From Armatimonadota bacterium (GTDB lineage: Bacteria > Armatimonadota > Fervidibacteria > Fervidibacterales > Thermosaccharophagaceae): a stretch of 64,000 bases of DNA. Location of the stretch: NCBI GenBank assembly GCA_025062195.1, contig JANXAS010000011.1:6149-70148 (forward strand), given 5' to 3'. This document shows, in pieces, positions 948-20,898 of the stretch; position 1 is the first letter of the stretch, and each line of letters begins with the position of its first letter. The notes below the pieces were generated by a model that saw nothing but the letters and a program-made list of their open reading frames with translations, made no database searches and was not told the DNA's origin. Made by a program: the position numbers and the translations under genes.

Positions 948-1993
948 GAAAGATGAAAACCGATGGGCAAGTGGTGACTCTCAAGGAAGCAATGCATTAT
1001 GAGGTGCTCCCCGATGGTTCTATTAAATGCACCCTTGAGCCACGCCAGTGCATCATTCACGATGGTGAAAGAGGCTTCTGCGGTGTTAGACAGAACTTGA
1101 AGAGGAAGCTTTGGGCTTTGACATATTCAAAGGTTGCAGTTGTTGACATTGAAACACTTTACCGGCATCACTTTTATCATGTCCTTCCGGGCGCATACTT
1201 TCTCACTGTGGGCACTGCCGGATGCAACATGAACTGCCAATACTGTGAGACGGCTTCAATATCGCAGGCAACGCTTGAGGCTGTGGAGAGCGAATATGCT
1301 ACACCGCAGATGCTCCTTTGGATGGCACTTGAGCGCGGCGCTGTCGGAATATTGTTTGCGCACAATGAGCCAGTGGTGGATTACGAGTTCATGATTGACA
1401 CATTTAAGCTTGCAAAGGATTTTAAGCTGCGCACCGCATGCCATACTGCAGCGAAGATATTCGCAAAGCCATTGGCTGAGCTTTGTCGGCATTTGGATGC
1501 CATAAACATTGACTTGAAAGCCTTTGACGAAGACGTTTACGAAAGGCTTTGTCAAGGCAGTCTCAAGACAACAAAGGAAGCAATCGCTACCATTTCAAAG
1601 CTCGCCAATGTGTTCATGGAAGTGACATATCTGCTTGTGCCGGGGTTCAACGATGACTTAGAGCAAATTAAGCGGATGTGCGAATGGCTGCTTAAGACCG
1701 CCGGAGATGAAGTGCCATTGCACTTTATCAGATTCTTCCCAGCACATAAGATGAAGGACGCCGACCCGACACCAATTGAGCTCATCTACGAGCGCCGTGA
1801 GCTCGCTATGAATATGGGTTTTAAGTATGTCTACGGTGGCAATCTGTTTGGCGACAAATCCGAGTTCACATACTGTGCCAAATGCAAAGCCGTAGTCATT
1901 GAGCGAAGCGAAGATGGCATCCCGACTTTGCGCATGCGCTCTGGAAGATGTGAGGCATGCGGCAATGCCATCCCCGGAATATGGAAGCTGTGA
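944..1993 (+). CDS. AmmeMemoRadiSam-type / PflA-like (COG1180) radical SAM enzyme
   Basis: 349-aa ORF. CNMNCQYC radical-SAM CxxxCxxC motif, Cys-containing N-terminal segment, and a C-terminal CAKC...CEACG zinc ribbon ending PGIW as in this family. GTG 944 overlaps the upstream stop by 4 nt (alternative ATG 953). Confidence 0.75.
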   Translation: MRKMKTDGQVVTLKEAMHYEVLPDGSIKCTLEPRQCIIHDGERGFCGVRQNLKRKLWALTYSKVAVVDIETLYRHHFYHVLPGAYFLTVGTAGCNMNCQYCETASISQATLEAVESEYATPQMLLWMALERGAVGILFAHNEPVVDYEFMIDTFKLAKDFKLRTACHTAAKIFAKPLAELCRHLDAINIDLKAFDEDVYERLCQGSLKTTKEAIATISKLANVFMEVTYLLVPGFNDDLEQIKRMCEWLLKTAGDEVPLHFIRFFPAHKMKDADPTPIELIYERRELAMNMGFKYVYGGNLFGDKSEFTYCAKCKAVVIERSEDGIPTLRMRSGRCEACGNAIPGIWKL

Positions 1994-2043
1994 GGGCTCA
2001 TATTTCAAGGCGACATCTGAACTCTTAGCTATGTAGCGCCGTG

Positions 2044-2116
2044 GCTTGTCCACTGCGGTCGCTCAGCTTCCGCCACCCAAAATGATGGCGCCGCATGATG
2101 GTTTTTGTCGCCTCGC
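2044..2116 (+). repeat. Dispersed repeat family Rep-2, copy a
   Basis: GCTTGTCCAC-TGCGGTCG left end matches the reverse complement of copy c (40726-40804). The TTTTGTCGCCTCGC right end is identical to copy b. Internal hairpin CGCCA/TGGCG. Lies 51 nt after the radical SAM stop. Confidence 0.6.
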
Positions 2117-2423
2117 AATTCAAATGCCGGTATGGAAGGCATGTTTTGAAAGTTTTCAAATGTGCCTGCTAAGGCTATTTGCTGCAAAGCTTACCGGGTG
2201 CTTGTTTAGGTTAAAGGCTCTTCAATGAGCCAAAAAGGCGGGCAGAGATTGAGAGGAATCTTTGAGGCATTGTGAGGATGGGGTTCTCGCCGAACAAAAT
2301 TCGAGCAAGCTGGCGATGGGAAGTAGACAGATAGGTAGCATTGTAGCCCACTTGCAAGTCCGCCATCTTCAAAACTCTTCTCCAACAACATTTTGAGCAA
2401 ATAGCACCTGTCAAATTGTAGCC

Positions 2424-3608
2424 TCAGCGTCCATGACAAACCGCACAAGTCTCCTCGCGCTTGTGACACTTGAAGCAAACTGACTTTGGATCAAAGCTCG
2501 CCACATCCTTGTGCTTGAGCGCAAACCCCTCAGGGTGTGGCAACGGAACACCGTGACAAGCATCGCAAGCATTCTTCCCGTGACAGCGCTCACAAATCTT
2601 TTGCTCTTCCTTTTTCACCTTAGCATGCGCTCTTCGGTAATCTTTTGGGTGCGGCATCGGCAAGCCATGACATGCATCACACCAAGATTGTGCATGACAG
2701 CGCATGCAAAGACTTGCGTTAATCTTTGCCTCGTTGTGCTTGCGCTCATAGCCCTTTGGATGGGGCATCCTGATGCCATGACATGAATCGCAGAAGGAAC
2801 TTGAATGGCACATAAGGCAATTCTGCCCAGCAAGGAAGAGCTTGCCGTGGCGCTTCATGAAATCGGGCTTGATGTGGGATGATGGTTTTCTGACGATGTG
2901 ACATGAATCACAAAACGAGCGCTCATGGCATTGCAAGCATTGAGTCTCTTTTTTGCGGGCGTGTTCACCATGCTTTGCGGCAAAGCCCTTCACATGGCTG
3001 GATGGTTTGCGCGGCTTGTGGCACAGGTCGCAAAATGCTTCACTATGGCAATCCAGGCACTGCTGTCTATCTTTTGTTTCCTTTGGATGGCGCTCAAGCC
3101 AATCTTGCCCGTGAGTATTCGGCAATGCTGTCTGCGGGCGAGCATGACATAACGAGCATTTCTTTGGCGCACGCTTATCATCGTGGCATTCCAAGCACAC
3201 ATCCATTGGCACAGCGCCATGCTTCGGATATGGCTTGCCCGGCTCTCGCTGCTTGATGTCTCTATGACAATCGCTGCAATGGTCACCCCTCTCAATATGC
3301 TTCATGTGCGAGAATGTAATTCGGTAGGCGCTTTCTCCGAGCGTGATGACGCTGTGGCATTCAAAGCATTCCAAATTAGCGATGTGGCGTAGGCGTTCGC
3401 TTAGAGAGTGTGAGGCTGAAATTCGCTTTGCATTGGTGTAGCGCGCCTCAGCCTCGTAGAGGCGCTTAACATCTCGCTTCACATAGTGCATATGAATCAT
3501 TAGCAGCGCCGATAACAAACTCACTATGACAATCGGAGAAAACATCAGCGCGAGTTTGAAGGACATTATTATAGCCCGCCTCAGCTTCACCGCTTTAACC
3601 CCCGACAC
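2424..3608 (-). CDS. Membrane-anchored 16-haem c-type cytochrome
   Basis: 394-aa ORF (GTG 3608; alternative Met 3566). One N-terminal TM helix. 16 CxxCH motifs account for all 32 Cys. Tandem doubled-CxxCH modules. Confidence 0.85.
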   Translation of the reverse strand: MSGVKAVKLRRAIIMSFKLALMFSPIVIVSLLSALLMIHMHYVKRDVKRLYEAEARYTNAKRISASHSLSERLRHIANLECFECHSVITLGESAYRITFSHMKHIERGDHCSDCHRDIKQREPGKPYPKHGAVPMDVCLECHDDKRAPKKCSLCHARPQTALPNTHGQDWLERHPKETKDRQQCLDCHSEAFCDLCHKPRKPSSHVKGFAAKHGEHARKKETQCLQCHERSFCDSCHIVRKPSSHIKPDFMKRHGKLFLAGQNCLMCHSSSFCDSCHGIRMPHPKGYERKHNEAKINASLCMRCHAQSWCDACHGLPMPHPKDYRRAHAKVKKEEQKICERCHGKNACDACHGVPLPHPEGFALKHKDVASFDPKSVCFKCHKREETCAVCHGR

Positions 3609-3678
3609 AGCTCAGATATGCACATGGGCAGTTTTTGACCAAGCAGTTTGCAAGCCAATTTCAACTGCCTCACCGCCT

Positions 3679-5301
3679 CTAACTGTTAGTGCTGCGGTGC
3701 TCATATTCAAGTGCGTGTCTTTCCTTTAACTCCCTCAGGCTAATCTTACCGGTTAGCCAAACCGTGCTCATCGGAAATACATCGGGACGAAGATGCGCAA
3801 AGTATATGTGGAAGCAAAGGAGGGCGAATGTTGCAAGCACAGCTTCATGGCTGTGTAACGCATGAGCGATTTCAACGAGCTGTGGCGATGTGCGTTCGGC
3901 GACAAGAGGCGCTTGCCAAAGCATTATGCCCGTTACGCCCATCATCAATATGCCCCAGCCTGCCGCCCAATAAAGGAACTTCTCAACGAAGTTGTATCGC
4001 CCCATCTTGGGTGGTTCACGGCGTATTCGTAGCAGGAAAAGTATGGAGTGATAGAAGTCAACGAAGTCCTTAAAGGTCGGAAGCATCTCTGTGCGCCTAT
4101 TGCCGAGAGCAAACTGGACGAGAAGATAGAGCAGGTGATAAACAACTGCAATGAGCATAACTATTCCTGCAACTCTATGTATGATGGCAGCGTTATCAAC
4201 CCCGCCGAGAAGCTCAAGAAGGAACAGCGAGATTGGTGACCAAAAGCCCTTTAGTGGCAAGCCAGTTAGCATTAGTGCCATAACGCTGCCCATGAAAAGA
4301 AAGTGTTGAAGGATTTGGTGGACATTCCAACGCTGCACATACCCTTTTAGCTCTTCGCCCTCCTTATGAATAGCTCTGGCGCACCAGAGCGCCCCCATCA
4401 CAACTGCGTCAAGCAACGTGTATGCGAACATTGAAATGAGCACGATGATGACGAACAGCTCAAAGAGCAAGTTGACCCAGTAGACTGCTGGACGCTCTGA
4501 GGGCGAAGCCAGCTTGTGCGTGAATGTGAGGGCAAATTTTTCGCCGCCGCCTTCGTGGCAGTTTGCGCACAACAAAGAGCGCTTTGAAGGGTGCATCATA
4601 GAGGCAGGGTCACTTGGCGAAAGTATGCTGTGGTAGCCATGACATGTGACGCAGTTGGCGCTGCGCTTGCTCCCAAGGTGCAGCTTCTTGCCGTGAAAGC
4701 TGCCCAAGTAAGTTGTGACAGTGTGTGTGTTAACTTTGTGCCGTAGCATCATTTCTTTGTTGGCGTGACACTTGGCGCATACCCATATGACATTGCTCGG
4801 ATATATTAACGAGCGTGGATCTTCATTGCTGAGTATATAATGGCTGCCATGACAATCGGTGCACATCGGTGGGTCATCACTGCCACTTAGTATGCTCATT
4901 GCATGCTCGCTTTTGCTGTATAGCTTGAAATGCTCCTTGTGGCATTCAATGCATGCAGCCAGTGCCGGCTGAGAGAGCCTATAAGCGCGCCTAACAAAAG
5001 GCTTAATCTCATTCGGTATATCTCTACGGTAGCCGCTCAAGGGGGAGTTCATTGTAATCTGGTGCGATTTTTTCATGGGACGCATGTTCGTGTGGCAATC
5101 GGTGCATTTGAATTTCCCATGCACTGAGGATGCAAACCTATCCGGGTTAACATAGAGGCTGCGTATCAATCCGTTTGGCAACCTTATGTGTAGCTTTTCG
5201 TTTGCGTGGCACGAAATGCAATGTTCCTGAGATGAGGCATATTCGTGCTGCAACCAAAGCAGAAAAACGATTATGCATGCTGCTATAGAGCGCCGAATCA
5301 T
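3679..5301 (-). CDS. Fusion protein: heptahaem cytochrome c domain plus integral-membrane cytochrome b (FdnI/PhsC/HydC-like); CbcL-like architecture
   Basis: 540 aa. Signal-peptide-like N-terminus. 7 CxxCH motifs in the first ~260 aa. The C-terminal ~270 aa has about 5 TM helices and conserved His blocks (RWNVHQILQH, HRVAG, HALHSHE). Confidence 0.8.
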   Translation of the reverse strand: MIRRSIAACIIVFLLWLQHEYASSQEHCISCHANEKLHIRLPNGLIRSLYVNPDRFASSVHGKFKCTDCHTNMRPMKKSHQITMNSPLSGYRRDIPNEIKPFVRRAYRLSQPALAACIECHKEHFKLYSKSEHAMSILSGSDDPPMCTDCHGSHYILSNEDPRSLIYPSNVIWVCAKCHANKEMMLRHKVNTHTVTTYLGSFHGKKLHLGSKRSANCVTCHGYHSILSPSDPASMMHPSKRSLLCANCHEGGGEKFALTFTHKLASPSERPAVYWVNLLFELFVIIVLISMFAYTLLDAVVMGALWCARAIHKEGEELKGYVQRWNVHQILQHFLFMGSVMALMLTGLPLKGFWSPISLFLLELLGGVDNAAIIHRVAGIVMLIAVVYHLLYLLVQFALGNRRTEMLPTFKDFVDFYHSILFLLRIRREPPKMGRYNFVEKFLYWAAGWGILMMGVTGIMLWQAPLVAERTSPQLVEIAHALHSHEAVLATFALLCFHIYFAHLRPDVFPMSTVWLTGKISLRELKERHALEYEHRSTNS

Positions 5302-5307
5302 CCGACC

Positions 5308-6660
5308 TCACTCGCCCACCTCTATGTGCTCGTTGCGATCGCCACTCAAGTTGCTCATAGCGCTGAGAAGCTCAACGCACGCCTCAATCGCTTTTATCTT
5401 GCCCTCATCGGCAGCTGTTGCTCTCAGGCGTTCAATCAGGGGGTGAAGAAGGCGCTTCATCAGGCGCTTTGTGAGCATGTCAACCACTTTGATTTCATCA
5501 TCGCCGCGTGGCGAAAGCCTGCCCATAAACTCGCTCAGAGTTTTCAAGCGCACTTGCTCTGCAGCTTTGAACATATTCACCACAATCGGCTCAACTCGCT
5601 TTGCGAGCCACCAACGCCAAAAGGCTTCAACCTCTCTCTGGACAATCGCCTCAGCCGCTTGCGCCTCATGTTGGCGCAGCTTGCGATACTCCTCGGCTAT
5701 ATCGGTTAGGTCATCAATATTTAAAAGCTTCAGTCCGTTCAATTGAGCAGCACTCGGTTCAACATCCCTTGGCACTGCAAGGTCAATGACCAACATCTGC
5801 TTTGAGTTTTGCGTGCGCCTTGAAAGTGCTTCGGCAAGCATGTTCTGGCTCAACACGAAATTCGGCGAACCGGTGCAAGAGACAATTATGTCGGCACCCG
5901 GCAGCCAACTTGGAAGTTCATCCAGTGATATGGCTACAGCGCCGGATTGACCGGCTAAATCCAAAGCCCGTTCAATTGTCCTGTTTGCGACCACGACTTT
6001 CCCTATGCCGTTCTTTTTGAACAGGCGCAGCGTGAGCAAGCCCATTTCTCCCACACCGATGAGCAGCAATGTTGCGCCGCCAAAATTGCCATATATACGC
6101 TTTGCCACATGAACTGCAGCATGTGGTATTGATGTTGCCCCCTCAGAGATGCGCGTCTCGGTGCGCACACGCTTACCAACATTAATGGCTCGCATGAACA
6201 GCCGCGATAGTATGGAGCCGCAGCATTTCAAGCGCATTGCCAGTTCATACGCATCCTTGATTTGCCTGAGTATTTGCGGTTCACCGATGACCATTGAATC
6301 CAACCCAGCTGCCACACGGAACAGGTGGGCGCAAGCACCCTTATCATCGGCTACATAGAGACCGGATATCAGCCTTTCCCTGGGCATGCGATGTTGGCAG
6401 CATAAGAATTCAATTAGCGCCATAGCGTCTGTTCCGTTAAGGACGGCATATATCTCCACACGGTTGCATGTTGATAGGAACACAACCTCATTAACGCCAT
6501 CAATTGAGCGCAGCGAACGAAGCGCATAGGGCACATCAACCTTGCACAGCGAGAGCCGTTCACGGACATCAATATTCATCGTGCGGTAATTGCCGCCAAC
6601 GAGCACCAGCTTAGGCGCTTCGCTATTTCGGTGAGCTTGCAATTGCCTCTCTCTTTCCAT
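5308..6660 (-). CDS. hemA: Glutamyl-tRNA reductase
   Basis: LVLVGGNYRT...RE N-terminus, CNRVEIY catalytic-Cys block and LLIGVGEMG NADPH Rossmann motif. The ORF is open to 6789. ATG 6660 or 6732 avoids overlap with ccmF, so the start is uncertain. Confidence 0.9.
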   Translation of the reverse strand: MERERQLQAHRNSEAPKLVLVGGNYRTMNIDVRERLSLCKVDVPYALRSLRSIDGVNEVVFLSTCNRVEIYAVLNGTDAMALIEFLCCQHRMPRERLISGLYVADDKGACAHLFRVAAGLDSMVIGEPQILRQIKDAYELAMRLKCCGSILSRLFMRAINVGKRVRTETRISEGATSIPHAAVHVAKRIYGNFGGATLLLIGVGEMGLLTLRLFKKNGIGKVVVANRTIERALDLAGQSGAVAISLDELPSWLPGADIIVSCTGSPNFVLSQNMLAEALSRRTQNSKQMLVIDLAVPRDVEPSAAQLNGLKLLNIDDLTDIAEEYRKLRQHEAQAAEAIVQREVEAFWRWWLAKRVEPIVVNMFKAAEQVRLKTLSEFMGRLSPRGDDEIKVVDMLTKRLMKRLLHPLIERLRATAADEGKIKAIEACVELLSAMSNLSGDRNEHIEVGE

Positions 6661-6757
6661 GTAACTTTCACCCTTAAATCCACCTGGGACAGATGAGCAC
6701 ACATTCACTTTATCTACCGAGCCAGTAGACATTTTAGCACAGGTATCACTGCCAAAC

Positions 6758-8971
6758 TTAAAAAGCGTTGCTATCGCTGCGACTCGCATAGCGCTTTGAG
6801 AAGACGAGTGCCATCAACCCACCGATCAGAATGAGCACGCTGCCAAAACGGAGCAAGTTCATGAATGGCTTAATGCTCAGCTCAACGATAGCATGCAACG
6901 ACTTTGCAGAGGTTTTCGGGCGCTCAACCGATAGCCGTATTAATCCCTCATCAGCATTCATTGCGAGTATGGAAAATGTGGCGCTTTCATCCGGCAGGCT
7001 CTCGTCAACCCCTTCACCGGATGCCGTTAATCCGGGTGAAACTAAGTGCCGCACACCGGTCGTCATCTGGTGCACCTCAAGTATTGCTCTTGCAATGAAC
7101 TCATCTGTCCGACCGAAAACATGTTCGCCAACCTCAAATTTGATGAACCGTATGTTCATGTCAAAAGCTCGTTTCTCCTCGCCCTTACGCAGCACCAAAG
7201 TGATGCGTTCGCTCTCACTTAAAAGCTCAATTGGCGATGCATAGATATCGCTCAACAAAAGCATCTTTATGCTCGGCTGGCGCACAACGCCATATGGGCT
7301 GTCATAAACCCTCATCTGCATGCTGCGCTTAGTCCCATCGCCTTCAATTACCAATGTAATGTGAGCATCCTTTTGAACCATGCGTGGGCTTTTGGGCTCA
7401 ATCTTACATGCGACTTTGTATCCAAGGGCTGTCTTGCTCTGACCAATTGCGAGCCTCAGTGTTTGAGAGCGTTCAAAAGAGGCTGAAAGTGATATTCCGA
7501 GCATGAGCGCAGCCACGCCGATATGCGCGATGCAGCTTCCGAGGCGATGCTGAGAACGGCTAATAGCATTCCGAAGAAGATTGAAGTTAATCAAGAGTGC
7601 TGCGACGGATAACAGCGTGGCTGCAATGTGGTATGGGTTTCGCATGCCGAAGAGGAATGCAGTGCCGGCTGCTATACACCCGATGAGGAACGATGCCATG
7701 ATTAAGCGCACACCATATCGTGTTTGGATACCTAAGCTAAGAGCGATGAGAAGCGCCAACGCAAATGGAGCCAAAGCACGGTTGTAAAAACTCGGCGATG
7801 CGCTCATGCTCACTCCAAATGGAGCTGTGAAGAGCGGCAGCGATGTCCCAAGCTCAATAATGCATGCCATTAGGATAAGAAGCACTGTTGCGCACCATGA
7901 GGCGAAGTTGACCGAATGAACCGATGTCCATGCCGGCTGGGCTTTAAGGTTGTGCCAGTAGCGAGCTGACACCGCTATTCCAACGACACTGTAAGCTATT
8001 AGCGATGCAAGGAGGGTTATATTGACCGAGCCGTGAGCTTCCCCGAAGACATGCACAGAGACCTCACGCAATATGCCGCTCCTCGTGATGAATGTCGCAT
8101 AGATGACGCTAACATAGGCAAACATGCAAAGCAGCGAGCAAGTTCTACAAACGGTCCCGCTACGCCTCTGAATCGCAAGGGTGTGTAAAAGTGCTGTCAG
8201 CAGCAGCCATGGCACAAGGGATGCATTCTCAACCGGGTCCCAACCCCAATAGCCACCCCACCCGAGAACTTCGTAGCTCCAATAAGCGCCGATGATTATG
8301 CCTGCTCCCAGCACAAGCCACGCAAGCAACACCCACTGGCGCACTATCTTAATCACTCGCTCATTGTTCGGCTCTCTAAGAAGCATGGGTGAAAGAGCAT
8401 ATGGTGCGGAGGTGAGTGCATATCCGCACAACATCAATGGTGGATGAACCACCATCCAAAAGTTACGCAGCAACGGGTTAAGCCCATGACCATCATCTGG
8501 CTTATGCGGGAGCACTTCAAAAGGGCTTTTGCAAGCCAACGCCACAAGCGCAAAGAGCTGCGCAAACGCAAACAGCGAAATGACGCTGAGAGCGCCATTG
8601 CCTAATGAATTGGTCGTCCTCGCAAGAGCGATGCCGATAAGCAATCCGAACCACGCCCAGAGGAGCATTGAACCCTCTTGACCAGCCCAAAAGGCGCTTA
8701 TACGATACCACAACGGCAACTCATTTGAGGTATGCGCAGCCACATAGGCTACATCGTATCTTCGTGCGCAGAGCAAAAACACCAAGATAGCCGATGAAAG
8801 GGTCACGCAAAAAAACGCAAAAGCGATGCTCAAGTGCGCTAACCGGCGTGCGTTAGCTGCCTTGAGATGCTGAAGCATGCTTGCAGCTACGGCAATAGAC
8901 AGCGAAACTGCAGACACCCAAATTAACGCCTCCCCAAGCACCGGAATAGCGATGGAAGCGTGCACATTCAA
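6758..8971 (-). CDS. ccmF: Haem lyase, CcmF/NrfE family (System I cytochrome c maturation)
   Basis: 737-aa polytopic membrane ORF. WWD-type motif WGGYWGWDPVENASLVPWL matches CcmF rather than CcsA. Long periplasmic C-terminal region ending in a TM helix. Confidence 0.8.
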   Translation of the reverse strand: MNVHASIAIPVLGEALIWVSAVSLSIAVAASMLQHLKAANARRLAHLSIAFAFFCVTLSSAILVFLLCARRYDVAYVAAHTSNELPLWYRISAFWAGQEGSMLLWAWFGLLIGIALARTTNSLGNGALSVISLFAFAQLFALVALACKSPFEVLPHKPDDGHGLNPLLRNFWMVVHPPLMLCGYALTSAPYALSPMLLREPNNERVIKIVRQWVLLAWLVLGAGIIIGAYWSYEVLGWGGYWGWDPVENASLVPWLLLTALLHTLAIQRRSGTVCRTCSLLCMFAYVSVIYATFITRSGILREVSVHVFGEAHGSVNITLLASLIAYSVVGIAVSARYWHNLKAQPAWTSVHSVNFASWCATVLLILMACIIELGTSLPLFTAPFGVSMSASPSFYNRALAPFALALLIALSLGIQTRYGVRLIMASFLIGCIAAGTAFLFGMRNPYHIAATLLSVAALLINFNLLRNAISRSQHRLGSCIAHIGVAALMLGISLSASFERSQTLRLAIGQSKTALGYKVACKIEPKSPRMVQKDAHITLVIEGDGTKRSMQMRVYDSPYGVVRQPSIKMLLLSDIYASPIELLSESERITLVLRKGEEKRAFDMNIRFIKFEVGEHVFGRTDEFIARAILEVHQMTTGVRHLVSPGLTASGEGVDESLPDESATFSILAMNADEGLIRLSVERPKTSAKSLHAIVELSIKPFMNLLRFGSVLILIGGLMALVFSKRYASRSDSNAF

Positions 8972-9103
8972 TCACCCTTTAAACCGTGGTTTGCAGCTGG
9001 ATACGAAAAAAACCACCAAGGGACTTACAGCGCACCAACAGACACTTCGTTTGGCTCGCCAATAGCTTCGCCAACGAATACTATGGCGCATTTGAGCTAT
9101 GCC

Positions 9104-10423
9104 TTATGACATGCGAAAATATGGGCGGTGTTGTGGTGCAAGGTGGCGCTCAACATATTCACCCCATGGCTTCCTATAAGTGCGGCAAAGGTGTTGATTG
9201 GCTTCCTCGTCCCCGATTACCAACTCTTTCTCTGCATCCCATCGTATGACCCTGCCAACCTTGAATGCTATATTCACGAGATGTAAGGCATTGGTTGAAA
9301 GGTGCCCCCATTCAATCGGCGCAACAGTTTGCTCACGGCTTTTTACACAATCAAGGAAGTTGCGCACATGGGGCGGGTGCTGCGGAGAGCCGCCGCGTTT
9401 CATTGGTTCCCCTCTTCCGGGCTCCGGTATCACCTCAAAACCTTCTCGAGTCAACACGAGCGTCCCATTTGTGCCATAGAAGGCTATGCCGTAGCCTTTT
9501 CCTTCAATTGGGCGCGCATTTGTATGATAGACGGAAGCTTGCACATAGAAATCGCCATAGTCAAGGAAGCCATCTTGAGTGTCCGGCGTCTCCCTATTGT
9601 CCTGAAGAGCGTATTTGCCACCAACTGACATGGCTGTCTTTGGAGCAGTCACGCCGAGTATCCAGTGGACTGTGTCAATGTGGTGTATTGCCCATGCAAG
9701 CATGAATCCACCCGAGTAATCCCAAAAGAACCAGTAGCCCGGCGCATTGCACCTATTGCGGTTGAACTTCCGGTATGGAGCAGGTCCAAGCCACATATCC
9801 CAATCAACGCCTGCTGGCGGATTTTCATCCGGAGGGCTGCCTATACCGAATGGCGTTTCGTTCCACGCGTTCCAGAAGCGCACCCTTACAATTTTACCGA
9901 TGACACCCTTTCGTATCAAATCCCTTGCTTCGGCATAGTGAGCACCGCTAAGCTGCTGTGTGCCATGCTGCGTGACTCTCTTAAATCTCTTTGCAGCATT
10001 AACTGCAGCTCTGCCCTCGGCTATGTTGTGGCTGAGCGGCTTTTCAACATAGACATCCTTTCCAGCTTCACACGCTGCTATAGTTTGGATGCAATGCCAA
10101 TGGTCTGGTGTAGCTATGAATACGGCGTCAATATCCTTTCGGTCAAGCAGCTGCCTGAAGTCCCTGTATGGTGTAGCCTTCCCGTCGGTCAGCTTGACAG
10201 CTGCTGCGAGCCTGTCGTCCTTCACATCACAAACTGCTGCTACAGCAACATCTTTATTTGCCATCGCCATACTCATGAGACCCTGCCCCATACCACCAAC
10301 ACCTATGAAGCCGAGGGTTATTTTTTCGTTAGCACCAAATGGTGAAGCGGAGCGAAAAGTTAAGAAAAGAGCGCCGGCTCCAACAAATTGCCGTCTTGAG
10401 AGCTTTGATATTTTGCCCCCCAT
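9104..10423 (-). CDS. Gfo/Idh/MocA-family oxidoreductase with twin-arginine signal
   Basis: 439 aa. SRRQFVGAGALFL Tat-like leader, LGFIGVGGMGQG Rossmann motif and VYVEKP motif. Confidence 0.85.
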   Translation of the reverse strand: MGGKISKLSRRQFVGAGALFLTFRSASPFGANEKITLGFIGVGGMGQGLMSMAMANKDVAVAAVCDVKDDRLAAAVKLTDGKATPYRDFRQLLDRKDIDAVFIATPDHWHCIQTIAACEAGKDVYVEKPLSHNIAEGRAAVNAAKRFKRVTQHGTQQLSGAHYAEARDLIRKGVIGKIVRVRFWNAWNETPFGIGSPPDENPPAGVDWDMWLGPAPYRKFNRNRCNAPGYWFFWDYSGGFMLAWAIHHIDTVHWILGVTAPKTAMSVGGKYALQDNRETPDTQDGFLDYGDFYVQASVYHTNARPIEGKGYGIAFYGTNGTLVLTREGFEVIPEPGRGEPMKRGGSPQHPPHVRNFLDCVKSREQTVAPIEWGHLSTNALHLVNIAFKVGRVIRWDAEKELVIGDEEANQHLCRTYRKPWGEYVERHLAPQHRPYFRMS

Positions 10424-10598
10424 GAAACATCACCTCACATTGCGCTTGCGGCTTTGCCGAGCGCTATTTTATGAGCATCGCTATATTTTGGCTTTCCATC
10501 CAAAACAAAGGTTGCCAAACTTAAGCCATCCATGCTGCTTAGTGTGGGTGCAAACGAGTTAAAATTCTGTGCAGCTATAAGGAGGGGGTGAGAAGGCT

Positions 10599-11153
10599 AT
10601 GATTACACGGCAACAGGCATGGCAATGGGTTTGTGAGTGGGTGAGCAATGAGAATTTAAGAAAGCATCTGCTCGCCGTTGAGGCTGCGATGCGCCACTAC
10701 GCGCGCATTTATGGTCAGGACGAAGATGTTTGGGGGCTCGCTGGATTACTCCACGACATCGATTATGAGCGTCATCCCGAACCACCGGAGCACCCACAAG
10801 TTGGCGCTCAGTTCTTGCGCGAGAATGGTGTCCCGCAAGAAATCGTTGAGGCGATACTTGGGCACGCCAACTGGACTGGTGTGCCGCGCAATTCACTCAT
10901 GGCTAAGGCACTCTATGCCTGTGACGAACTTACAGGCTTGCTTGTCGCTACGGCGCTTGTCATGCCGAGTAAAAAGCTATCGGAGGTCAAGGTTGATTCT
11001 GTAGTGCGCAAAATGAAGGACAAATCTTTTGCGAGGAAGGTTGACAGGCAAGCAATCGTTGATGGCGCAAACGAACTTGGCATGCCACTTGAAGAGCACA
11101 TCGCTAATGTGTTAGCAGCAATGCAGGGCATAGCCGAGCAACTTGGGTTGTAA
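10599..11153 (+). CDS. HD-domain phosphohydrolase
   Basis: 184 aa. H...LLHDIDYE HD signature. ATG preceded by AAGGAGGGGGTGA. Confidence 0.75.
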   Translation: MITRQQAWQWVCEWVSNENLRKHLLAVEAAMRHYARIYGQDEDVWGLAGLLHDIDYERHPEPPEHPQVGAQFLRENGVPQEIVEAILGHANWTGVPRNSLMAKALYACDELTGLLVATALVMPSKKLSEVKVDSVVRKMKDKSFARKVDRQAIVDGANELGMPLEEHIANVLAAMQGIAEQLGL

Positions 11154-12202: not shown

Positions 12203-15055
12203 GTGATGAGAGTGTTTCCTAATGGCATCAAGGTGAGTGCGATATACATGCTCACTTTTCTCTGGTGGCTTGCTATTGCAACGGCACGGGGAGAAGGTGA
12301 AAGCGTCGTGTCAGCTGATGTTGAGAAAGTTTTGGCTGAGTGGAACTTTGAGAGGGTAGGCGACCTTGAGGGATGGCAACCAAACTCGCACATGAAGGAT
12401 GTAAGTGTGAAGGACAGCATACTCAGCTTCGCCACATCTGGCAGTGACCCAATACTTGAGCTTCGCCCGTTGATTGACATTCCAACATCACCATGGCAGG
12501 CGATTGAAATACGGATGCTCGCCACAAAGGATGGCATAGCTGAATTCTTTTGGAGCAACACGACGCAGACCAAGTATGGTGGCTTTGCCCCGGAGAAAAG
12601 CACGCGCTTCTATGTCTATGGCGATGGCAAGTGGCGCACATATCGTGTGACACCGTTTTGGCATCCTGAGGGAAAGATCATCAGGCTGCGATTTGACCCA
12701 TATGATGGTGCATCGTTTTCCATTGACTTTATTCGCGTCGTGCAGCTTAAAGTCCCACATCAGATTGAGGGTGCTGAATTTGAATTCATTGGCACAGACT
12801 GCGCTTGGAGAGCAATTGGCGGGATAAACCTGTCTGCTGGGAAAAGTGGACTGCAAATTAACATTCAGGATGTGCATGGATACCTTATAAGCCCGCCAAT
12901 TTCAATCAATGCCGAAAAGGAAAGCTATATCTCGCTTTGCATGTCTGCAGACAAAGGTGAGGTCGCCACAATTGCATTCGTCTCAGAGAAGTCGCACCAC
13001 CTTCAAATCTTCACCTTCCCAATAGTCGCCGATGGGAAGGAGCGCACATACACATTGGACATGCTCTCATCGCCGCGCTGGCAAGGAAGGATTATAGCTG
13101 TTGGGCTTCGTCCGAGTGACAAAATTGGCGCAAAATGCATTTTGAGATGGGTGCGCGTTACGGACAAGCCCGTCGGGGAGCCACACATCGCAATAACATC
13201 TTTTGCTCCGGAAGATGCGCCTCTCAGGGTCGGCAAACCAGCTACGCTTACGGCGATCATTGCTAACAGGGGTGGAGAGCCTGCGGTAAATGTGCAGACA
13301 TCGCTTGAGCTGCCAAAGGGTGCACGCACAATCGAGGTTGATGTAAGCGCTGCGGGCGTGACTAAGAAACCCAATGGCACAATTGCATTGACCAAACTCT
13401 CCTTCGGTGATTTAGCTATATGGCGCTGGAGGGTGATTTCAGAGAAACCCATAACAGGTGAGGCGAGGCTTCATGTGAAAGCTCTTAACGCACCACCTGT
13501 AACGACAACGCTAAAATTCTCATTCAAGCCCGCACTTAAGCTTCCAAGGGCAAGTTATGTCCCTGAACCGAAGCCTGTCCGTGGCAAGTATGATGTTGGT
13601 GTTTACTACTTCCCGGGCTGGAAGACAGCATCGCAATGGATGCCGATAATCAGTTTCCCCGAAAGGAAGCCGTTGCTTGGTTGGTATCGTGAGGGCGATC
13701 CCGAAGTCGCCGATTGGCACATCAAGTGGGCTGTTGAGCATGGCATTACCTTCTTCGCCTACGACTGGTATTGGGTGCGTGGAGCAAGGCAGTTGGAACA
13801 TGCCTTACATGATGGCTACATGAGGGCACGCTATAGACACATGCTCAAGTTTTGCCTGCTTTGGGCAAACCACAACCCGCCAAATACATCATCGCTTGAA
13901 GACTGCATAGCTGTAACTCGTTTTTGGATTGAGCATTACTTTCGCCGCCCCGAATATTTGACCATAGATGGAAAGCCAGTCGTTATCATCTTCAGCACAC
14001 ACCGATTGAGCGAAGACTTGGGCACTTATGAAAATGTGCGCAAGGCATTTGATGCCATGAGGGGTGAATGCATCAAAGCCGGCTTACAAGGGCTTTACAT
14101 CATTGCGTGCGTCGGCAACGCTGCACACGCAGAGATGGCAGCCAAAGAGGGATATGACGCTGTGACGGCTTACAATTGGCCAACACTTGGCATGCCGCCA
14201 AGTTTGAGGCGAGCCTCGTTTGACAGCCTAATAGAAGCATACCGCAGGAATTGGGAGGACATAGCAGTTAGGAGTCCGATACCGCTCATGCTCCCAATAA
14301 GCGGCGGTTGGGATAGCCGACCTTGGCACGGTGAGAATGCATTAGTGCGATATGGACGGACGCCCGAAAACTTTAGACGCCACTTGCAGGATGCAAAACG
14401 CATGCTTGAAGACGAGCGCTTTAAAGGCAAGCTATTGCCGATGGTGCTGATTGAAGCATGGAATGAGTGGGGTGAGGGCAGCTACATTGAGCCGCATGCC
14501 GAATTCGCTTTCGGTTACCTTGACGCTATACGAGAAGTGTTTACCGACGCCCCAAAGGAGCATGCCGATATAACCCCATCGGATGCTGGGTTAGGTCCAT
14601 ATGAAGTAACTTTTTTGCCGAGCAGGGCTGCATGGGAGTTTGAACAGGATGACGAGGGTTGGGCTAACACAATGGGCATGAGGAACATAACTGTGATTGG
14701 CAAAGCTATCTGTGCTATCACAACATCAAACGACCCGGCGTTTTTCGGACCACCAATTCGTGTTGAGGTGGGTCAGTTTAAGTTCGTCCATTTAAGGATG
14801 CGTTTAAGAAGGTTAGATGGCGTCCACTTCAAAGACATAGGTCAGGTCTTTTGGCGCACAGCAACGATACCGGAGAGCGAGGTGACAAGTGTCAGGTTTG
14901 AAGTAATTGGCGATGGCGAGTGGCATGATTATGTGCTCAATGTCTCTGAGAATGTTCGTTGGCGCGGTATCATAACACGCCTTCGCCTTGACCCATGCAC
15001 TCAGCCCGATGTGCATGTTGAAGTTGACTTCATCAAGCTTATTGGTGAAAGGTGA
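12203..15055 (+). CDS. Secreted multidomain protein with central GH99-like/WbsX-like domain flanked by three copies of an uncharacterised ~140-aa module
   Basis: 950 aa with a hydrophobic leader. The central block GVYYFPGWK...KPLLGWYREGDPEV...HGITFFAYDWYW resembles the WbsX/GH99-like family. Modules at aa ~45-185, ~190-320 and ~800-950 share W.FE..EGW, I.(I/L)RM, GDG.W..Y, LR.DP and DFI(R/K). Confidence 0.55.
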   Translation: MMRVFPNGIKVSAIYMLTFLWWLAIATARGEGESVVSADVEKVLAEWNFERVGDLEGWQPNSHMKDVSVKDSILSFATSGSDPILELRPLIDIPTSPWQAIEIRMLATKDGIAEFFWSNTTQTKYGGFAPEKSTRFYVYGDGKWRTYRVTPFWHPEGKIIRLRFDPYDGASFSIDFIRVVQLKVPHQIEGAEFEFIGTDCAWRAIGGINLSAGKSGLQINIQDVHGYLISPPISINAEKESYISLCMSADKGEVATIAFVSEKSHHLQIFTFPIVADGKERTYTLDMLSSPRWQGRIIAVGLRPSDKIGAKCILRWVRVTDKPVGEPHIAITSFAPEDAPLRVGKPATLTAIIANRGGEPAVNVQTSLELPKGARTIEVDVSAAGVTKKPNGTIALTKLSFGDLAIWRWRVISEKPITGEARLHVKALNAPPVTTTLKFSFKPALKLPRASYVPEPKPVRGKYDVGVYYFPGWKTASQWMPIISFPERKPLLGWYREGDPEVADWHIKWAVEHGITFFAYDWYWVRGARQLEHALHDGYMRARYRHMLKFCLLWANHNPPNTSSLEDCIAVTRFWIEHYFRRPEYLTIDGKPVVIIFSTHRLSEDLGTYENVRKAFDAMRGECIKAGLQGLYIIACVGNAAHAEMAAKEGYDAVTAYNWPTLGMPPSLRRASFDSLIEAYRRNWEDIAVRSPIPLMLPISGGWDSRPWHGENALVRYGRTPENFRRHLQDAKRMLEDERFKGKLLPMVLIEAWNEWGEGSYIEPHAEFAFGYLDAIREVFTDAPKEHADITPSDAGLGPYEVTFLPSRAAWEFEQDDEGWANTMGMRNITVIGKAICAITTSNDPAFFGPPIRVEVGQFKFVHLRMRLRRLDGVHFKDIGQVFWRTATIPESEVTSVRFEVIGDGEWHDYVLNVSENVRWRGIITRLRLDPCTQPDVHVEVDFIKLIGER

Positions 15056-15061
15056 TATGAT

Positions 15062-18000
15062 ATGTCATCCAACCACCTTCAAATTGACTTAAAGCTGCGG
15101 TGCACACTCACGGTGGCTCTTTCATTTTTTCTGTTGGGCGCTAATTGCCCAGGCTTGGAGGGCAAAACAAATAGCCGACCTTGGGAGGTTGACTTGAGCG
15201 GCGAATGGAAATTCAAAGCTGGTGATGATGAACATTACGCATCGCTGCAGTTTGACGATTCAAGGTGGGAGACGCTGTATGCGCCAGCTTTGTGGGATGG
15301 GCAGGGTTATTCCGATTATGATGGCTATGGTTGGTATCGCAAATGGTTTTTCGTCCCAAAGGAACTGAGTGGGAAGGAAATCTTGTTTGAGCATGGTGGC
15401 GTAGATGACAACGATTGGGTTTACATTAACGGTGTGAAGGTCGGTGAGGGGAAGGGATGCTACATTCCCCGCAGCTACATCATTCCAGCAAAGCTCATAA
15501 AATATGGCGGGCGCAACTTGATAGCAATCCGTATTTACGACGGGGCAATGGGTGGCGGATTGGCAAGAAGCCCTCTGAGGGTGAGAGAGATGAGGCTTAG
15601 CGACCGCATAGCGATAAGCGGTGTGAGCATAGTTGGCAATGTGGGTAGTAGAGTGATGACGCTCACCATGACGCTGATGAGCAAGGATGGCAAACCACAC
15701 AAGCCTAAGTTGAGCGTGAGTGTAGTTGACCATTTTCTCAGGAAGCGCTTTCATAGATCGCTTGAGAGCCCCATCCAACCCAACGAACGGAAAGAGTTGG
15801 AATTCCAGTTTGAAGGCGGGGATAGCAAGGACTACCGTGTGAATGTCGAGCTGGCTGAGGGCAACGAGCGCGATCAATTGTTCTGGCATATCTTGAGCGA
15901 TATAACGAGCGGCATGCGCCCGACAATCGTCCTTTCTGGCGATTGGGAGATGATGCTTCCACCGGATGACAAGCTGTCGTTCCCACCAACTGGTAACTGG
16001 CAACCGATCAAGGTGCCGATGCTCAGCTGGGGAGGTTGGAGTGGAAAGAATCATCGGGTATGGTTTAGAAAACAATTTGAGATGCCAGGAGAGTTTTTTG
16101 GCAGGCGTATTATCCTTCGTTTTGAAGCGGTGGCTCATCATGCCGTAGTCTATGTGAATGGAAAGATGATAGGAGAGCACCTTGGTGGCTTTGAGCCATT
16201 TGAGTTTGACATAACTGAGGCAGCAATGGTGGGTGCTAAGAACGAGCTGCTCGTTGGCGTGACAGATTGGGTTGCCGGATTGGTTGAAGGTATCACACCG
16301 CCGGATGACACAGAAAAGATGCCCAAGGATTCAATGCTCATACCTTACGGTAATCGCCCGCAAGCAAGGCGTGGCATATGGGACGATGTGTTTGTGTATG
16401 CCAGAAACGCTTTGCACATTGCCGATGGGTTCATCATCACATCGGTTCGCAACAAAACTTTGACGGTCAAAGTCAGGCTGCAAAACGATACTGACAATGC
16501 TGCAAGCGTTGATTTAATTGGTGATGTATATGATGGCGATGTTAAAATGCTCTCATTGCCAAAGAAGTCCGTAACGGTGCCGGCGCACGGGAGCGTTGAT
16601 ATTGAACTTAGCAAGCCCGTGTCTTTGGAGGATAATGGCGCTGGCAAGAGAGCAAGCAAAGCCTTCAGGCTGTGGTTCCCACATGAACCATACCTTTATC
16701 GGCTGGCACTTCAATTGTTTAAGGATGGGCAGAGGGTTGATGAGCTGAACTTGCGCTTTGGCTTCCGTGAGATTTGGATTGATGGCATTGACTACCGGCT
16801 GAACGGGCGCATATTTAAATTGCGCGGTTTAGGTTGCCCACCAACCACTGCAACGCGTGAAGAGATACGGCATTACTACCTTGAGCGTTTGAAAGCCAAC
16901 TTCACGCTCGTTCGCTTTCACATGCAACCTCGCCAAAGGCACTTTTACGAGATAGCTGATGAAGTTGGCATGTGCCTCAAGGATGAGTCGGCGTTTTACT
17001 GTGCTGCAAATGTTTATGCCCTCGGTGAAGAGCGCCTCTGGCGCAACTTGAGTGAACACATAGCTGGCATGGTGATGCGTTCTCGCAATCATCCATCACT
17101 GCTAATTTGGAGCGTAGAGAACGAGATACTTCACTGTGGCGGAATGCGCATAAATGGGACTGATGAGCGTATCTACGAACTTGGCAAGCTCATAATGAAG
17201 CTTGACCCAACAAGACCAATTGAGTTTGAAGGCGATGGTGATGTAAACGGGCGTGCAGCGACAGTAAACATTCACTACCCAAGGGAGTTCGGCTGCCACG
17301 ACCACAACCTTTTCCCAAACGATGCCTATTGGCTCGGTAAAGAGGGGAATGATAGATGGCCACGGGAACTCATCTGGAAGCGTGACAAGCCATTAATAAT
17401 CGGCGAGTTCTGTTATTACCCATACAGCCGTCCACCCGGTGGCGTTTCCATATTCCTCGGGGATGCAGTTTATGTTAACCGTGAGATTGAGAGAGAAGCG
17501 CACCGAATTGGTGTTAGGATGTTATGCGATGGCACAAGGCGCATGGGGGTTGCCGGGCTTAATCCTTGGGTGGATGACTTGCGCTACAGCACTGAATGCT
17601 TGAAGCCAATAGCTGCCACGCTCAATCAATATGACAAGACCTTCTTATCCGGAGAGACAGTTGAGCGTGAGATAGCTGTTCACAATGACACATTGCACAG
17701 GCGCAAGTTGACTTTGACCGCCTCGGTCAAAGTCGGCAATGCTTTGTTGGCAAAGCGAAGCTTCAACTTGGACATGGATTGTGGTGAAATGCGCATTGTT
17801 AAGTTTGCTTGGCAGATGCCGAGCGTTAAGGAACGCACCAAGGCGTCGCTCAAGTTGAGCATACAAGATGGCGCAAGAGTCGTGTTTGATGAGGAACATA
17901 AGCTTTGGGTCTTCTCAAGGACACGATTGCAGATTCCAAAGGGTTTAAAGGTTGCCCTGTTTGATCCAGCTGGTGAAACTGCAAAAGCGCTCGCTAAGCT

Positions 18001-19165: not shown

Positions 19166-19438
19166 AGGGTTTATACCGTCTCAAAAAATGGTGTGTAACC
19201 CGACTTGCTGTAGTAGGGCAACCGAACAAATGAGCAGCGGACAATGAATCCTTCTTGTGTGTAGTTTCTTTCGCCACAAAATTTGTTCAAAAATCTTTTG
19301 GATGGATGTGGTCTGCCTGGAAAAAGTCATAATGAAAACAACGATGAAGGTGGCTTAATAGCTGCCCTCGCCTTCAGGTGCACAACTTCTTAATCAATAG
19401 AGCAGCGTTAGCAATTTGCTGGCTTTCGGCTCGCAGCA

Positions 19439-20780
19439 ATGGCGCAAGTTATCCGTGGAGAGGTGAGCATGAGCTGGTCAATGGAGGCATATTCAAATAA
19501 GCATTCAAGGCGTCAGTTCATTAAATCATCGGCTGCCTCAGCAATTGTTTTGGGGGTGCTTAAAACAAGCGAGGCTGGTGTGAATATTGGTGGAAGTGAC
19601 ATCATACGAGTTGGCGTCATAGGTTGCGGTGGAAGAGGGATTGGCGCTGCAGTTGATGCTATGGCTGCGGACGAAGGTGTGCGTATAGTTGCACTTGCAG
19701 ACTTGTTTGAGAGCCGAGTGCGTGCTGGGATGAAGCTGCTAAAAGAGCGCTATCCTAAGCAAGCCATCGTTGATGATGCTCATTGCTTTGTCGGTTTGAT
19801 GCATGCAAGCATGTGATTGAATGCAGCGATGTTGTCCTAATTGCATGCGCTTCAAAGTTTCACCCGCTTCATGTGCGCGCTGCTGTTGAGTCCGGCAAAC
19901 ATGTCTTTGTTGAAAAGCCACCAGCGATAGACCCGGCAGGGATTAAAATGCTTGCCGAAGCTTGCGTTTAGCCAAGAGGAAAGGGCTTTGCATTGTCTCA
20001 GGTCTGCAAAGCCGCTATCACACTGGGTATCGTGAAGCTGTTCAGAGAGTGCATGATGGTGCTATTGGTGACATCGTGGCAATTGAGGAAAATTTTCTCC
20101 GCTCACCTTACGGAGTTGTGCACCGCCAACCATGGATGAATGAGTTGCAATTCCAGCTGATGAATTGGTATCATTTCAGCTGGCTGTCGGGTGATGATGT
20201 CGTTCAATCGCTTGTTCACAACCTTGATAGAGCGACTTGGGTGCTGAGGGAACAAGCGCCAATCAGGGCGCATGGCATGGGAGGGCGTTCTGCATGGTTT
20301 GAGGAAGCCGCCGGAAATGTGTTTGACCATCACGCAGTCGTTTATGAATACGCTAATGGGGTGCGAGTTTATGCATTCTGCAGGACACAGGTCGGGTGCC
20401 ACAATGAAGTCTCAAGCAAGATATTTGGAACGAAGGGCACTTGCTACTTGACGGATATGCGCATTGAGGGCGAGAAGAAATGGCGCTATGCCGGTCCGCC
20501 ATGCAATCCATACCTTGAAGAGCACAAAGCATTGTTTAGTGCCATACGCTCCGGCAAACCAATCGTCAACGATTACATGGTGCGTTCAACGCTTGTCTCC
20601 ATAATGGGGCAAATTGCATGTTACACTGGTCAGCGCATCACATGGGAGCAAATTGAGAAGTCGGACTTCTACTATCCGCCGAAGCCTGAGGACTGCAGCT
20701 TTGAGATGGAGCCGCCGGTGAAGCCGGGGCGAGATGGTCTTTACTCGGTGCCTATACCCGGTGTTACGAAACTTATTTGA
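19439..20780 (+). pseudogene. Gfo/Idh/MocA-family oxidoreductase (Tat signal) disrupted by two frameshifts
   Basis: Three consecutive ORFs (19439-19816, 19783-19971, 19962-20780) in frames 2, 1 and 0 read as one protein: SRRQFIKS leader, VGVIGCGGRG, HVFVEKP and a C-terminal domain. The shifts lie near 19795-19797 (T run) and 19965-19970. Confidence 0.75.
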
Positions 20781-20898
20781 GTGTTAACAGGTTGTTGAGT
20801 TACAATTTGAGGCGGTGTGACTGTCACCGAACCAAACAGCGGCATGCTTGCCACATATGGTCTTCCTTCGCCGCTCATGAAAGGCAATCTACAGCCTT

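Follow-up and report, generated by a model that had tools for sequence, protein, structure and literature searches.

A 64,000-nucleotide (nt) stretch of DNA from an Armatimonadota bacterium (assembly GCA_025062195.1, contig JANXAS010000011.1, positions 6,149-70,148 of the forward strand), referred to in the following as the window, contains at positions 2,424-8,971 four adjacent genes on the minus strand. We consider it fairly likely that in this locus a respiratory module of two proteins, a seven-haem cytochrome c::cytochrome b fusion (B) and a 16-haem cytochrome c (A), sits together with two genes, hemA and ccmF, that make and attach its cofactor. The B-A pair is predicted to be a relative of the Geobacter Cbc quinol oxidoreductases. 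The genes themselves belong to kinds already described. The novelty lies in the module of a Cbc-like protein and a dihaem-repeat protein, which is conserved and in some cases fused, in its spread in Terrabacteria and in its repeated association with genes for haem supply and cytochrome maturation. The four genes are as follows:

6758-8971, minus strand: ccmF, a long-type haem lyase of the CcmF/NrfE family; open reading frame (ORF) of 737 amino acids (aa), 735 aa in the NCBI annotation
5308-6660, minus strand: hemA, glutamyl-tRNA reductase (GluTR), 450 aa from the ATG at 6660; maximal ORF 5308-6789
3679-5301, minus strand: B, a CbcL/CbcBA-type fusion of 540 aa with a signal peptide, a seven-haem periplasmic c domain, a linker transmembrane (TM) helix and a predicted dihaem b domain of four TM helices
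2424-3590, minus strand: A, a membrane-anchored 16-haem cytochrome c, 388 aa from the GTG at 3590; maximal ORF 2424-3608, 394 aa

A first-pass annotation of the DNA had named the four genes and proposed hidden Markov model searches as a check. These searches were run with the Pfam and NCBIfam models and confirmed all four identities. The counts of haem-attachment sites given there were exact as well, with 7 CXXCH motifs in B and 16 in A. B and A are the only two ORFs of the whole 64-kb window with more than one CXXCH motif, and among the remaining genes of the window no other cytochrome-, ccm- or hem-like gene was found. The distance of 6 nt between hemA and B was also right, and so was that of 70 nt between B and A for the longest A ORF; it becomes 88 nt when the start of A annotated by NCBI (3590) is used. 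The DNA comes from a hot-spring bacterium of the Thermosaccharophagus type within the Fervidibacteria (Armatimonadota). Its closest genomes are those of Candidatus Thermosaccharophagus tengchongensis, yellowstonensis and gerlachensis, to which A is 67-77%, ccmF 49-64% and hemA 63-73% identical. Moreover, the four proteins are encoded in the Armatimonadota metagenome-assembled genome (MAG) GCA_026418135.1.

The fusion protein B can be divided into two functional domains:

4492-5229, minus strand: c domain of B, residues 25-270, with CXXCH motifs starting at residues 28, 66, 117, 147, 175, 217 and 245
3697-4338, minus strand: b domain of B, residues 322-535, a cytochrome b of the FdnI/HydC type

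A comparison with 44 homologues revealed that all seven CXXCH motifs of the c domain are invariant, as are His61, His133, His154, His203, His224 and His262, and His80 is nearly so; the additional conserved histidines are consistent with bis-His ligation of the c-haems. The b domain contains four histidines (His333, His375, His483 and His498) that are invariant in the same set. Because the CXXCH motifs, the four b-domain histidines and the c-domain histidines are invariant, B very probably binds seven c-haems and two b-haems. In addition to multihaem c families, B matches the Pfam family PF01292 (cytochrome b561 / Ni-hydrogenase cytochrome b) with 33.6 bits (cut-off 30.1) over residues 324-503. 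A phmmer search aligned B with E. coli FdnI (1kqf_C; E-value 1e-6), and His375, His483 and His498 fall on His57, His155 and His169 of FdnI. The AlphaFold2 model of B, with a mean predicted local distance difference test score (pLDDT) of 81.4 and a predicted template modelling score (pTM) of 0.75, consists in its membrane part of a linker helix (residues 271-312) followed by four TM helices. When this model was compared with the PDB using Foldseek, 1kqf_C was recovered as the sole significant match with a TM-score of 0.79 (normalised to target length) and a probability of 1.00, followed by HyaC (6g94_A). In both the phmmer and the Foldseek searches against the PDB the b domain alone was matched, and no solved structure corresponded to the c domain. 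The b domain is thus predicted to adopt the same four-helix dihaem fold as FdnI and HyaC, with three of the four axial histidines aligned and the fourth conserved in the first TM helix. Unlike FdnI and HyaC, B carries an N-terminal seven-haem c domain and an extra TM helix, and there are no adjacent FdnG/FdnH or hydrogenase genes. An assignment of B as FdnI in the strict sense was rejected, given a score of 60.7 against the cut-off of 115.85 for TIGR01583 and no genes for fdnG/fdnH-type molybdopterin or iron-sulphur subunits nearby. The fusion architecture of B is shared by more than 1,100 proteins, of which the members compared are about 650-690 aa long and 28-35% identical to B.

The likeness to the Geobacter Cbc complexes, which the first-pass annotation had pointed out, is apt in view of the seven c-haem sites, the linker TM helix, the FdnI-type fold of the b domain and its four invariant histidines. 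According to the literature descriptions on which the Geobacter side of this comparison is based, CbcL of Geobacter sulfurreducens, a bc-type menaquinol oxidoreductase of the inner membrane, is a fusion of a dihaem b and a nine-haem c domain with six TM helices, in which all c-haems are bis-His ligated and which has the c7 cytochrome PpcA as its partner. CbcBA consists of a dihaem cytochrome b (CbcB) and a seven-haem cytochrome c (CbcA) with a TM anchor. Like CbcL and CbcBA, B joins a periplasmic multihaem c domain to a dihaem cytochrome b of the FdnI/HydC type; it has seven c-haem sites as CbcA, a CbcB-like b domain and the c-b fusion of CbcL. A partner domain of the c7 type occurs on both sides: CbcL is paired with PpcA, and B with the c7-like head of A. 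In contrast to PpcA, which is a soluble trihaem protein, A is a membrane-anchored 16-haem protein that is encoded next door and sometimes fused to its partner. The host differs as well, being a thermophilic member of the Armatimonadota.

The second protein of the module, A, is composed of three parts:

3495-3551, minus strand: TM anchor of A, residues 14-32, from a hydropathy scan, followed by a predicted helical stalk that extends to about residue 60
3126-3383, minus strand: four-haem head of A, residues 70-155, with c7/ActA-like similarity
2427-3125, minus strand: six dihaem repeats of A, residues 156-388, of about 38-40 aa each, with haems 5-16

A contains 37 histidines and 32 cysteines, and the latter all lie within its 16 CXXCH motifs. 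The repeats follow the pattern H..C-x2-CH-x4-C-x2-CH-x4-P-x2-H with a spacing of 9/31/9/31/9/28/9/29/9/30/10, and the additional histidines that they hold would be sufficient for bis-His ligation. The only Pfam family that A matches above its cut-off is the c7 family (PF14522 Cytochrome_C7, 45.1 bits), which covers the head in the N-terminal third of the protein, and the repeat region is covered by no Pfam or NCBIfam model. A profile of the A family matched the ActA chains 6f0k_A, 6lod_A and 8k9e_A of alternative complex III with E-values of 3e-11 to 3e-10 and PpcA/c7 proteins at about 1e-5, and there were weak matches to the 16-haem HmcA chains 1gws, 1h29 and 1z1n (E-values of 4e-5 to 2e-3). 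Thus, A resembles ActA in its N-terminal TM anchor and c7-like multihaem head and Desulfovibrio HmcA in its number of haems. However, HmcA is a soluble protein made of c3-like domains, whereas A is anchored in the membrane and has tandem dihaem repeats of variable copy number, and neither Hmc nor Act partner genes are present at the locus. For these reasons, and because the HmcA matches are weak and local only, A was not assigned to HmcA. An assignment to the NapC/NirT/NrfH family was likewise rejected: the score for PF03264 is 22.5 against a cut-off of 24.1, the match covers profile positions 105-171 only, and the first CXXCH motif is located 43 residues past the TM helix. Larger relatives do match PF03264. 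Of 1.84 billion cluster representatives, 1,847 belong to the A family at E<=1e-3 and 688 do so at E<=1e-10, and in the alignment whole repeat units are inserted or deleted between homologues. No published characterisation of the family was found, and it appears to be uncharacterised.

The association of B and A extends far beyond the window. A genome scan, which covered one genome per species and was based on a six-sequence alignment, returned 80 loci with A-like genes, mostly from Armatimonadota (Fimbriimonadaceae, Chthonomonadia, Hebobacteria and Fervidibacter, including F. sacchari PD1) and from Thermoleophilia. In 64 of the 80 loci a B-type cytochrome b adjoins the A-like gene, mostly in the order c-b-A and with c and b either fused or split. 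The A-like proteins carry between 10 and 32 haems because whole repeat units have been gained and lost. For instance, in one locus (L005) the gene of a B homologue with 46% identity comes before that of a full-length A homologue with 39% identity and 18 CXXCH motifs, and another (L003) has a 10-haem A-like gene ahead of B. In a third (L008), B is split into two genes, one for a six-haem c protein (34%) and one for a b protein of 242 aa (42%), and a 25-haem A-like gene comes after them. Moreover, a 975-aa protein (P0361, L089:93-3020; GCA_012962865.1, contig DTWT01001713), which is 51% identical to B and 46% identical to A, joins a B-type part of seven-haem c and cytochrome b to an A-type part via the TM anchor of A. 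P0361 is a single gene call on a 4.2-kb metagenomic contig that lacks the upstream context, and it may be a frameshift or assembly artefact; taken as it stands, the fusion supports a physical B-A complex. Together, gene order and fusion argue that B and A are a real conserved unit across Armatimonadota and Thermoleophilia.

Two further arrangements of the module were observed. On the chromosome of the cultivated aerobe F. sacchari PD1 (L073:8651-13686) the order is reversed, with a 17-haem A-like gene (829 aa) preceding an 11-haem fused B-like gene (686 aa), and there are no hem or ccm genes within 10 kb of the module. In the CG06 Armatimonadetes lineage (L005:1-13073, L012:1-4450) genes for a Fer4_11-NrfD-molybdopterin oxidoreductase lie directly upstream of two successive modules of the c-b-A type, whose proteins have 27, 10, 17, 7 and 18-20 haems, and a ccmF gene follows the last of them. 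Judging from this context, the module may be able to work for a periplasmic molybdoenzyme.

Of the two haem-related genes, hemA is assigned by a score of 400 bits for TIGR01035 (cut-off 209.55), by the Pfam domains GlutR_N, Shikimate_DH and GlutR_dimer and by the catalytic-cysteine motif STCNR. The first-pass annotation had described the hemA ORF as abutting or overlapping ccmF. An overlap of 32 nt does exist for the maximal ORF, but the GluTR domain begins only at residue 62-64 of this ORF, NCBI annotates a protein of 450 aa whose ATG at 6660 is preceded by GGGTGA, and the ccmF-hemA spacers of the three Thermosaccharophagus species amount to at least 72-120 nt. Based on these three lines of evidence, hemA most likely starts at 6660, which separates it from ccmF by a spacer of about 97 nt. 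This spacer contains one further element:

6730-6739, minus strand: extended -10-like motif TGCTAAAATG within the 97-nt ccmF-hemA spacer

When the spacers of the window and of the three Thermosaccharophagus species were aligned, the block TG(C/T)TAAAATG at this position was the sole invariant one, and the remainder of the spacer diverges. The motif occurs twice in the window where 0.82 occurrences are expected, so that the evidence for it lies in its conservation and not in its rarity. Thus, TGCTAAAATG is a candidate for an internal promoter of the extended -10 type that would serve hemA, B and A. The RNA fold of the spacer was no better than that of shuffled sequences (z = -0.8), and an Rfam scan of the locus gave no match. 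Downstream of hemA the genes are closely packed. The start of B lies 6 nt past the hemA stop, and since the ribosome-binding site of B (GAGG) is located within the 3' end of hemA, the two genes would be tightly coupled. The most economical reading of these features is a hemA-B-A unit with tight coupling, with ccmF either being read through or transcribed on its own.

A lack of synteny in relatives, which the first-pass annotation had named as a point that would speak against an operon, was not observed. The order GFO-ccmF-hemA-B-A, in which GFO denotes the gene of the GFO/IDH/MocA family upstream, is identical in the three named Thermosaccharophagus species. In two of these the hemA and B genes overlap by 4 nt, and in all four genomes B either overlaps the hemA stop or starts within 6 nt of it.

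More distant lineages have a variety of other arrangements, and in 16 of the 80 loci from the scan a gene for haem synthesis or cytochrome c maturation lies within 10 kb. hemA itself lies within this distance in 7 of the 80, while about 0.5 would be expected at random by our own estimate, in which the loci are not phylogenetically independent. In the CG06 lineage (L005/L012), a ccmF gene with 50% identity to that of the window is located directly downstream of A and not upstream of B. Two Fimbriimonadaceae genomes have ccmF within a few kb, among multihaem genes. In two loci (L008 and L037) resB, a multihaem gene, ccsA, in part sirC, hemA and hemX precede the module, and L008 contains in addition hemB, cobA/hemD and ahb-type genes past the module on the other strand. 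Other arrangements with resB/ccsA, hemA, sirC, hemC and ahb genes are present in L025, L027, L030, L044 and L045. Finally, an Actinomycetota MAG (L074:2385-11443) has contiguous ccmA-ccmB-ccmC-ccmF genes, followed by a six-haem gene and a 22-haem A-like gene. The interval between its ccmC and ccmF genes is too short for a ccmD or ccmE gene; the MAG may represent a System I variant without CcmE or may encode ccmE elsewhere. These arrangements in distant lineages are stronger evidence than the synteny within Thermosaccharophagus and lend comparative support to the idea, put forward in the first-pass annotation, that the conduit brings its own cofactor supply.

A TM scan of the ccmF product gave at least 13 TM segments; the protein ends with a periplasmic domain and one last TM helix, and it matches the Pfam families PF01578 (123.7 bits, cut-off 29.9) and PF16327 CcmF_C (63.4 bits, cut-off 28.7). 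It can be aligned to CcmF of T. thermophilus (6zmq) with an E-value of 2.5e-57. In this alignment the four conserved CcmF histidines and the WWD motif are all present, and the motifs kept are HPP (VHPPLM), WWD (WGGYWGWDPVEN; WGGYWGWDPVENAS), ALLHT (LLHT), SVHVF and IAHIG. By analogy with E. coli CcmF, we take these motifs to contain the two periplasmic P-His and the two TM-His residues, the latter being the b-haem ligands. The protein is thus predicted to be a genuine haem lyase of the CcmF type, and it shares with the System I CcmF/NrfE lyases such as 6zmq the WWD domain, the four histidines, the multi-TM layout and the CcmF_C domain. In contrast to these enzymes, it scores below the curated NCBIfam cut-offs (TIGR00353, 262.8 against 569.05; TIGR03145, 263.4 against 927.3), has no adjacent ccmABCDE/H genes and groups with homologues of about 730-750 aa that occur in many phyla with 31-37% identity. 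By these measures it is a divergent CcmF from a large "long" clade of 730-750 aa. Multihaem cytochrome genes surround the gene, and the same is true of its relatives in L006/L007, L012, L013 and L016. In an unrelated metagenomic lineage (L006:674-7779, L007:1-6933), for instance, a long CcmF with 35% identity to that of the window ends a cluster of a multihaem, a porin-like and a 13-haem gene. Cytochrome clusters that include a long ccmF gene may be a wider pattern, which raises the question of whether the long CcmF proteins within such clusters are dedicated lyases.

How the module could work can be outlined from its parts. The dihaem b domain of B with its FdnI-type fold would exchange electrons with the menaquinone pool, and the seven bis-His c-haems of B would carry the electrons into the periplasm. 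There A, as the dedicated partner of B, would take them up at its c7-like head and relay them along its 16 haems, which would reach into the periplasm of a diderm cell. That the envelope is diderm, with an outer membrane, is shown by a lipid A/lipopolysaccharide cluster of the window, lpxC-fabZ-lpxA-lpxB-msbA-kdtA, at 45707-52665. Each B-A pair would demand about 25 haems, and GluTR catalyses the committed step of haem synthesis; with hemA translationally coupled to B and ccmF located 97 nt upstream, the synthesis and attachment of haem might track this demand, so that the expression of the module would be co-regulated with that of hemA and ccmF. For the Thermosaccharophagaceae (class Fervidibacteria), a lack of aerobic terminal oxidases and the presence of a group 1a H2-uptake [NiFeSe] hydrogenase have been reported (PMC11535203), and we infer that the same holds for the genome from which the window derives. 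Electrons would most likely flow from quinol, the presumed substrate, to an outward acceptor in an oxidase-less anaerobe, and quinol oxidation by B would feed an extracellular conduit. The outward direction is favoured because the family lacks oxidases and because MtrB/PioB porins are encoded near the module in three related loci (L008, L022 and L028).

The opposite direction is a serious competitor, although we regard it as rather unlikely. Electrons would then pass from a donor in the periplasm, for example the group 1a [NiFeSe] hydrogenase, via A and the seven c-haems of B to menaquinone, in analogy to the Hmc and Qrc complexes of Desulfovibrio. Such a route would suit a family described with a respiratory H2-uptake hydrogenase of this group and without terminal oxidases (PMC11535203). 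It would also suit the b domain: Ni-hydrogenases have their cytochrome b subunits in PF01292, and HyaC ranks second among the structural matches. In addition, the profile of the A family does recognise the 16-haem HmcA chains weakly. However, the similarity to HmcA is confined to the generic c3/c7-like head, no hydrogenase gene is present in the window or in the flanks of related loci, and a quinone-reducing path would still require a further terminal acceptor. Moreover, other Armatimonadota have MtrB/PioB porins encoded next to the module, which speaks for outward transfer.

For the proposal that the module sits with genes for its own cofactor, the main competitor is that ccmF and hemA are ordinary housekeeping genes which stay beside B and A by shared descent, without any regulatory or stoichiometric coupling. 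This alternative seems unlikely to us, yet part of the evidence weighs in its favour and against our proposal. The synteny within Thermosaccharophagus is weak evidence since the flanks are collinear too, from HD and GFO genes to radical SAM, riboflavin-synthesis and secD genes. Most loci with A-like genes, that is 64 of the 80 and including all Fervidibacter loci, contain no haem or maturation gene within 10 kb; given the 16 loci that do, the linkage is recurrent, but neither universal nor obligatory. No compositional anomaly was seen at the locus. The conserved -10-like motif, probably a separate promoter upstream of hemA, suggests that ccmF need not share the hemA transcript. A consensus scan for promoters and terminators over positions 1900-10700 gave sites no commoner than in shuffled sequence and none in the intergenic gaps; it missed the motif at 6730-6739 because the -35 region is poor. 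Other points that speak against our proposal concern the proteins and their partners. In classical System I, CcmF is not sufficient for cytochrome maturation, and neither ccmABCDE/H genes nor any porin-cytochrome, outer-membrane or other terminal partner were found in the 64-kb window. B is just 28-35% identical to the wider fusion family and differs from CbcL in having seven instead of nine c-haems and five instead of six predicted TM helices. Finally, the AlphaFold2 model of A, computed from a 17-sequence alignment (pLDDT 61, pTM 0.28), is credible for the N-terminal helix only (residues 2-60, pLDDT 81-96) and unreliable for the remainder. Set against a coincidental adjacency is the recurrence of the linkage in varied orders and with different systems, namely CcmF upstream, CcmF downstream, ResB/CcsA, hemA-hemX and ahb, as well as the overlap or the distance of at most 6 nt between hemA and B in all four genomes.

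A less probable alternative takes up the analogy to the Bacillus hemA-hemX gene pair that had been drawn in the first-pass annotation. Here ccmF and hemA would be a variant of this pair, and CcmF would sense haem flux and control the abundance of GluTR post-translationally, besides or instead of acting as a lyase. In the Bacillus/Staphylococcus hemAXCDBL operon, a GluTR gene indeed lies beside a gene for a PF01578 "cytochrome c assembly" membrane protein. HemX is a member of PF01578 that is encoded beside gtrR/hemA in 94% of 113 genomes and lowers the abundance of GluTR (PMC5801465). Moreover, true hemA-hemX pairs precede the same module in related Armatimonadota loci, with a 271-aa PF01578 gene right after hemA in L008 and a 167-aa fragment in L037. 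In the window, however, a CcmF of 737 aa is encoded upstream of hemA instead of a HemX of about 270 aa downstream, and hemCDBL are absent from the locus. The literal analogy fails since the protein is a full CcmF that retains every haem-lyase hallmark and the CcmF_C domain. Furthermore, its CG06 relative with 50% identity has no adjacent hemA, and a link between CcmF and GluTR is without experimental precedent. That the two cytochromes are subunits of a characterised complex (formate dehydrogenase-N, Nrf, Hmc, alternative complex III or NapC/NirT) is very improbable: the weak matches to FdnI models, ActA and NapC/NirT and the Fer4_11-NrfD-molybdopterin oxidoreductase upstream of related modules in L005 could suggest it, but no strong match to a characterised reductase complex, which the first-pass annotation had thought might explain the cytochromes differently, was found, the equivalog and NapC/NirT scores given above remain below their cut-offs, and neither the window nor the Thermosaccharophagus loci contain FdnGH, NrfA, ActB-F or HmcB-F genes.

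Two flanking genes were considered as parts of the unit or of haem metabolism and were set aside. The radical SAM gene is not a haem enzyme such as AhbD or HemW but encodes an AmmeMemoRadiSam enzyme (TIGR04337, 293 bits), and the GFO/IDH/MocA gene upstream encodes a sugar dehydrogenase with a twin-arginine translocation (Tat) signal that is typical of this lineage rich in carbohydrate-active enzymes (CAZymes). Elsewhere in the window, large CAZyme genes follow each other at 12203-24323 and encode a 950-aa WbsX-like, a 1367-aa GH2 and a 715-aa GH116/GH52-like protein, in keeping with the description of Fervidibacteria as polysaccharide degraders. A GFO/IDH/MocA gene at 19439-20780 is apparently split (52-aa and 272-aa pieces in the annotation, ORF fragments at 19439-19971) and is probably a frameshifted pseudogene or the result of a sequencing error. 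At 56408-61606 a gene for a 673-aa membrane protein of the DUF6785/DUF6784 type adjoins those for a sodium:solute symporter and a PAS-domain sigma-54 activator.

As a tentative extension of these observations, c-b-A might be an unrecognised module of the Terrabacteria (Armatimonadota, Thermoleophilia and some Bacillota), in which a CbcBA-like quinol oxidoreductase is hard-wired, and in some cases fused, to a membrane-anchored "wire" that has 10-32 haems and varies in length as dihaem repeats are gained and lost. Within the Armatimonadota the module would move as a self-sufficient "haem island" together with hemA or ahb genes and a long CcmF or ResB/CcsA, the coupling to hemA would meter the cofactor in Thermosaccharophagus, and the module would be the missing anaerobic respiratory outlet of a family that reportedly has no terminal oxidases. 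The loci in which cytochrome substrates are repeatedly found beside hemA and System I or System II genes constitute a natural experiment on haem supply versus multihaem demand. For those working on extracellular electron transfer, the pair would provide a new thermostable inner-membrane module from lineages other than the Proteobacteria and Desulfobacterota. As for the Thermosaccharophagaceae, which are thermophiles that degrade polysaccharides, the predicted 25-haem membrane module is a concrete candidate for their electron sink.

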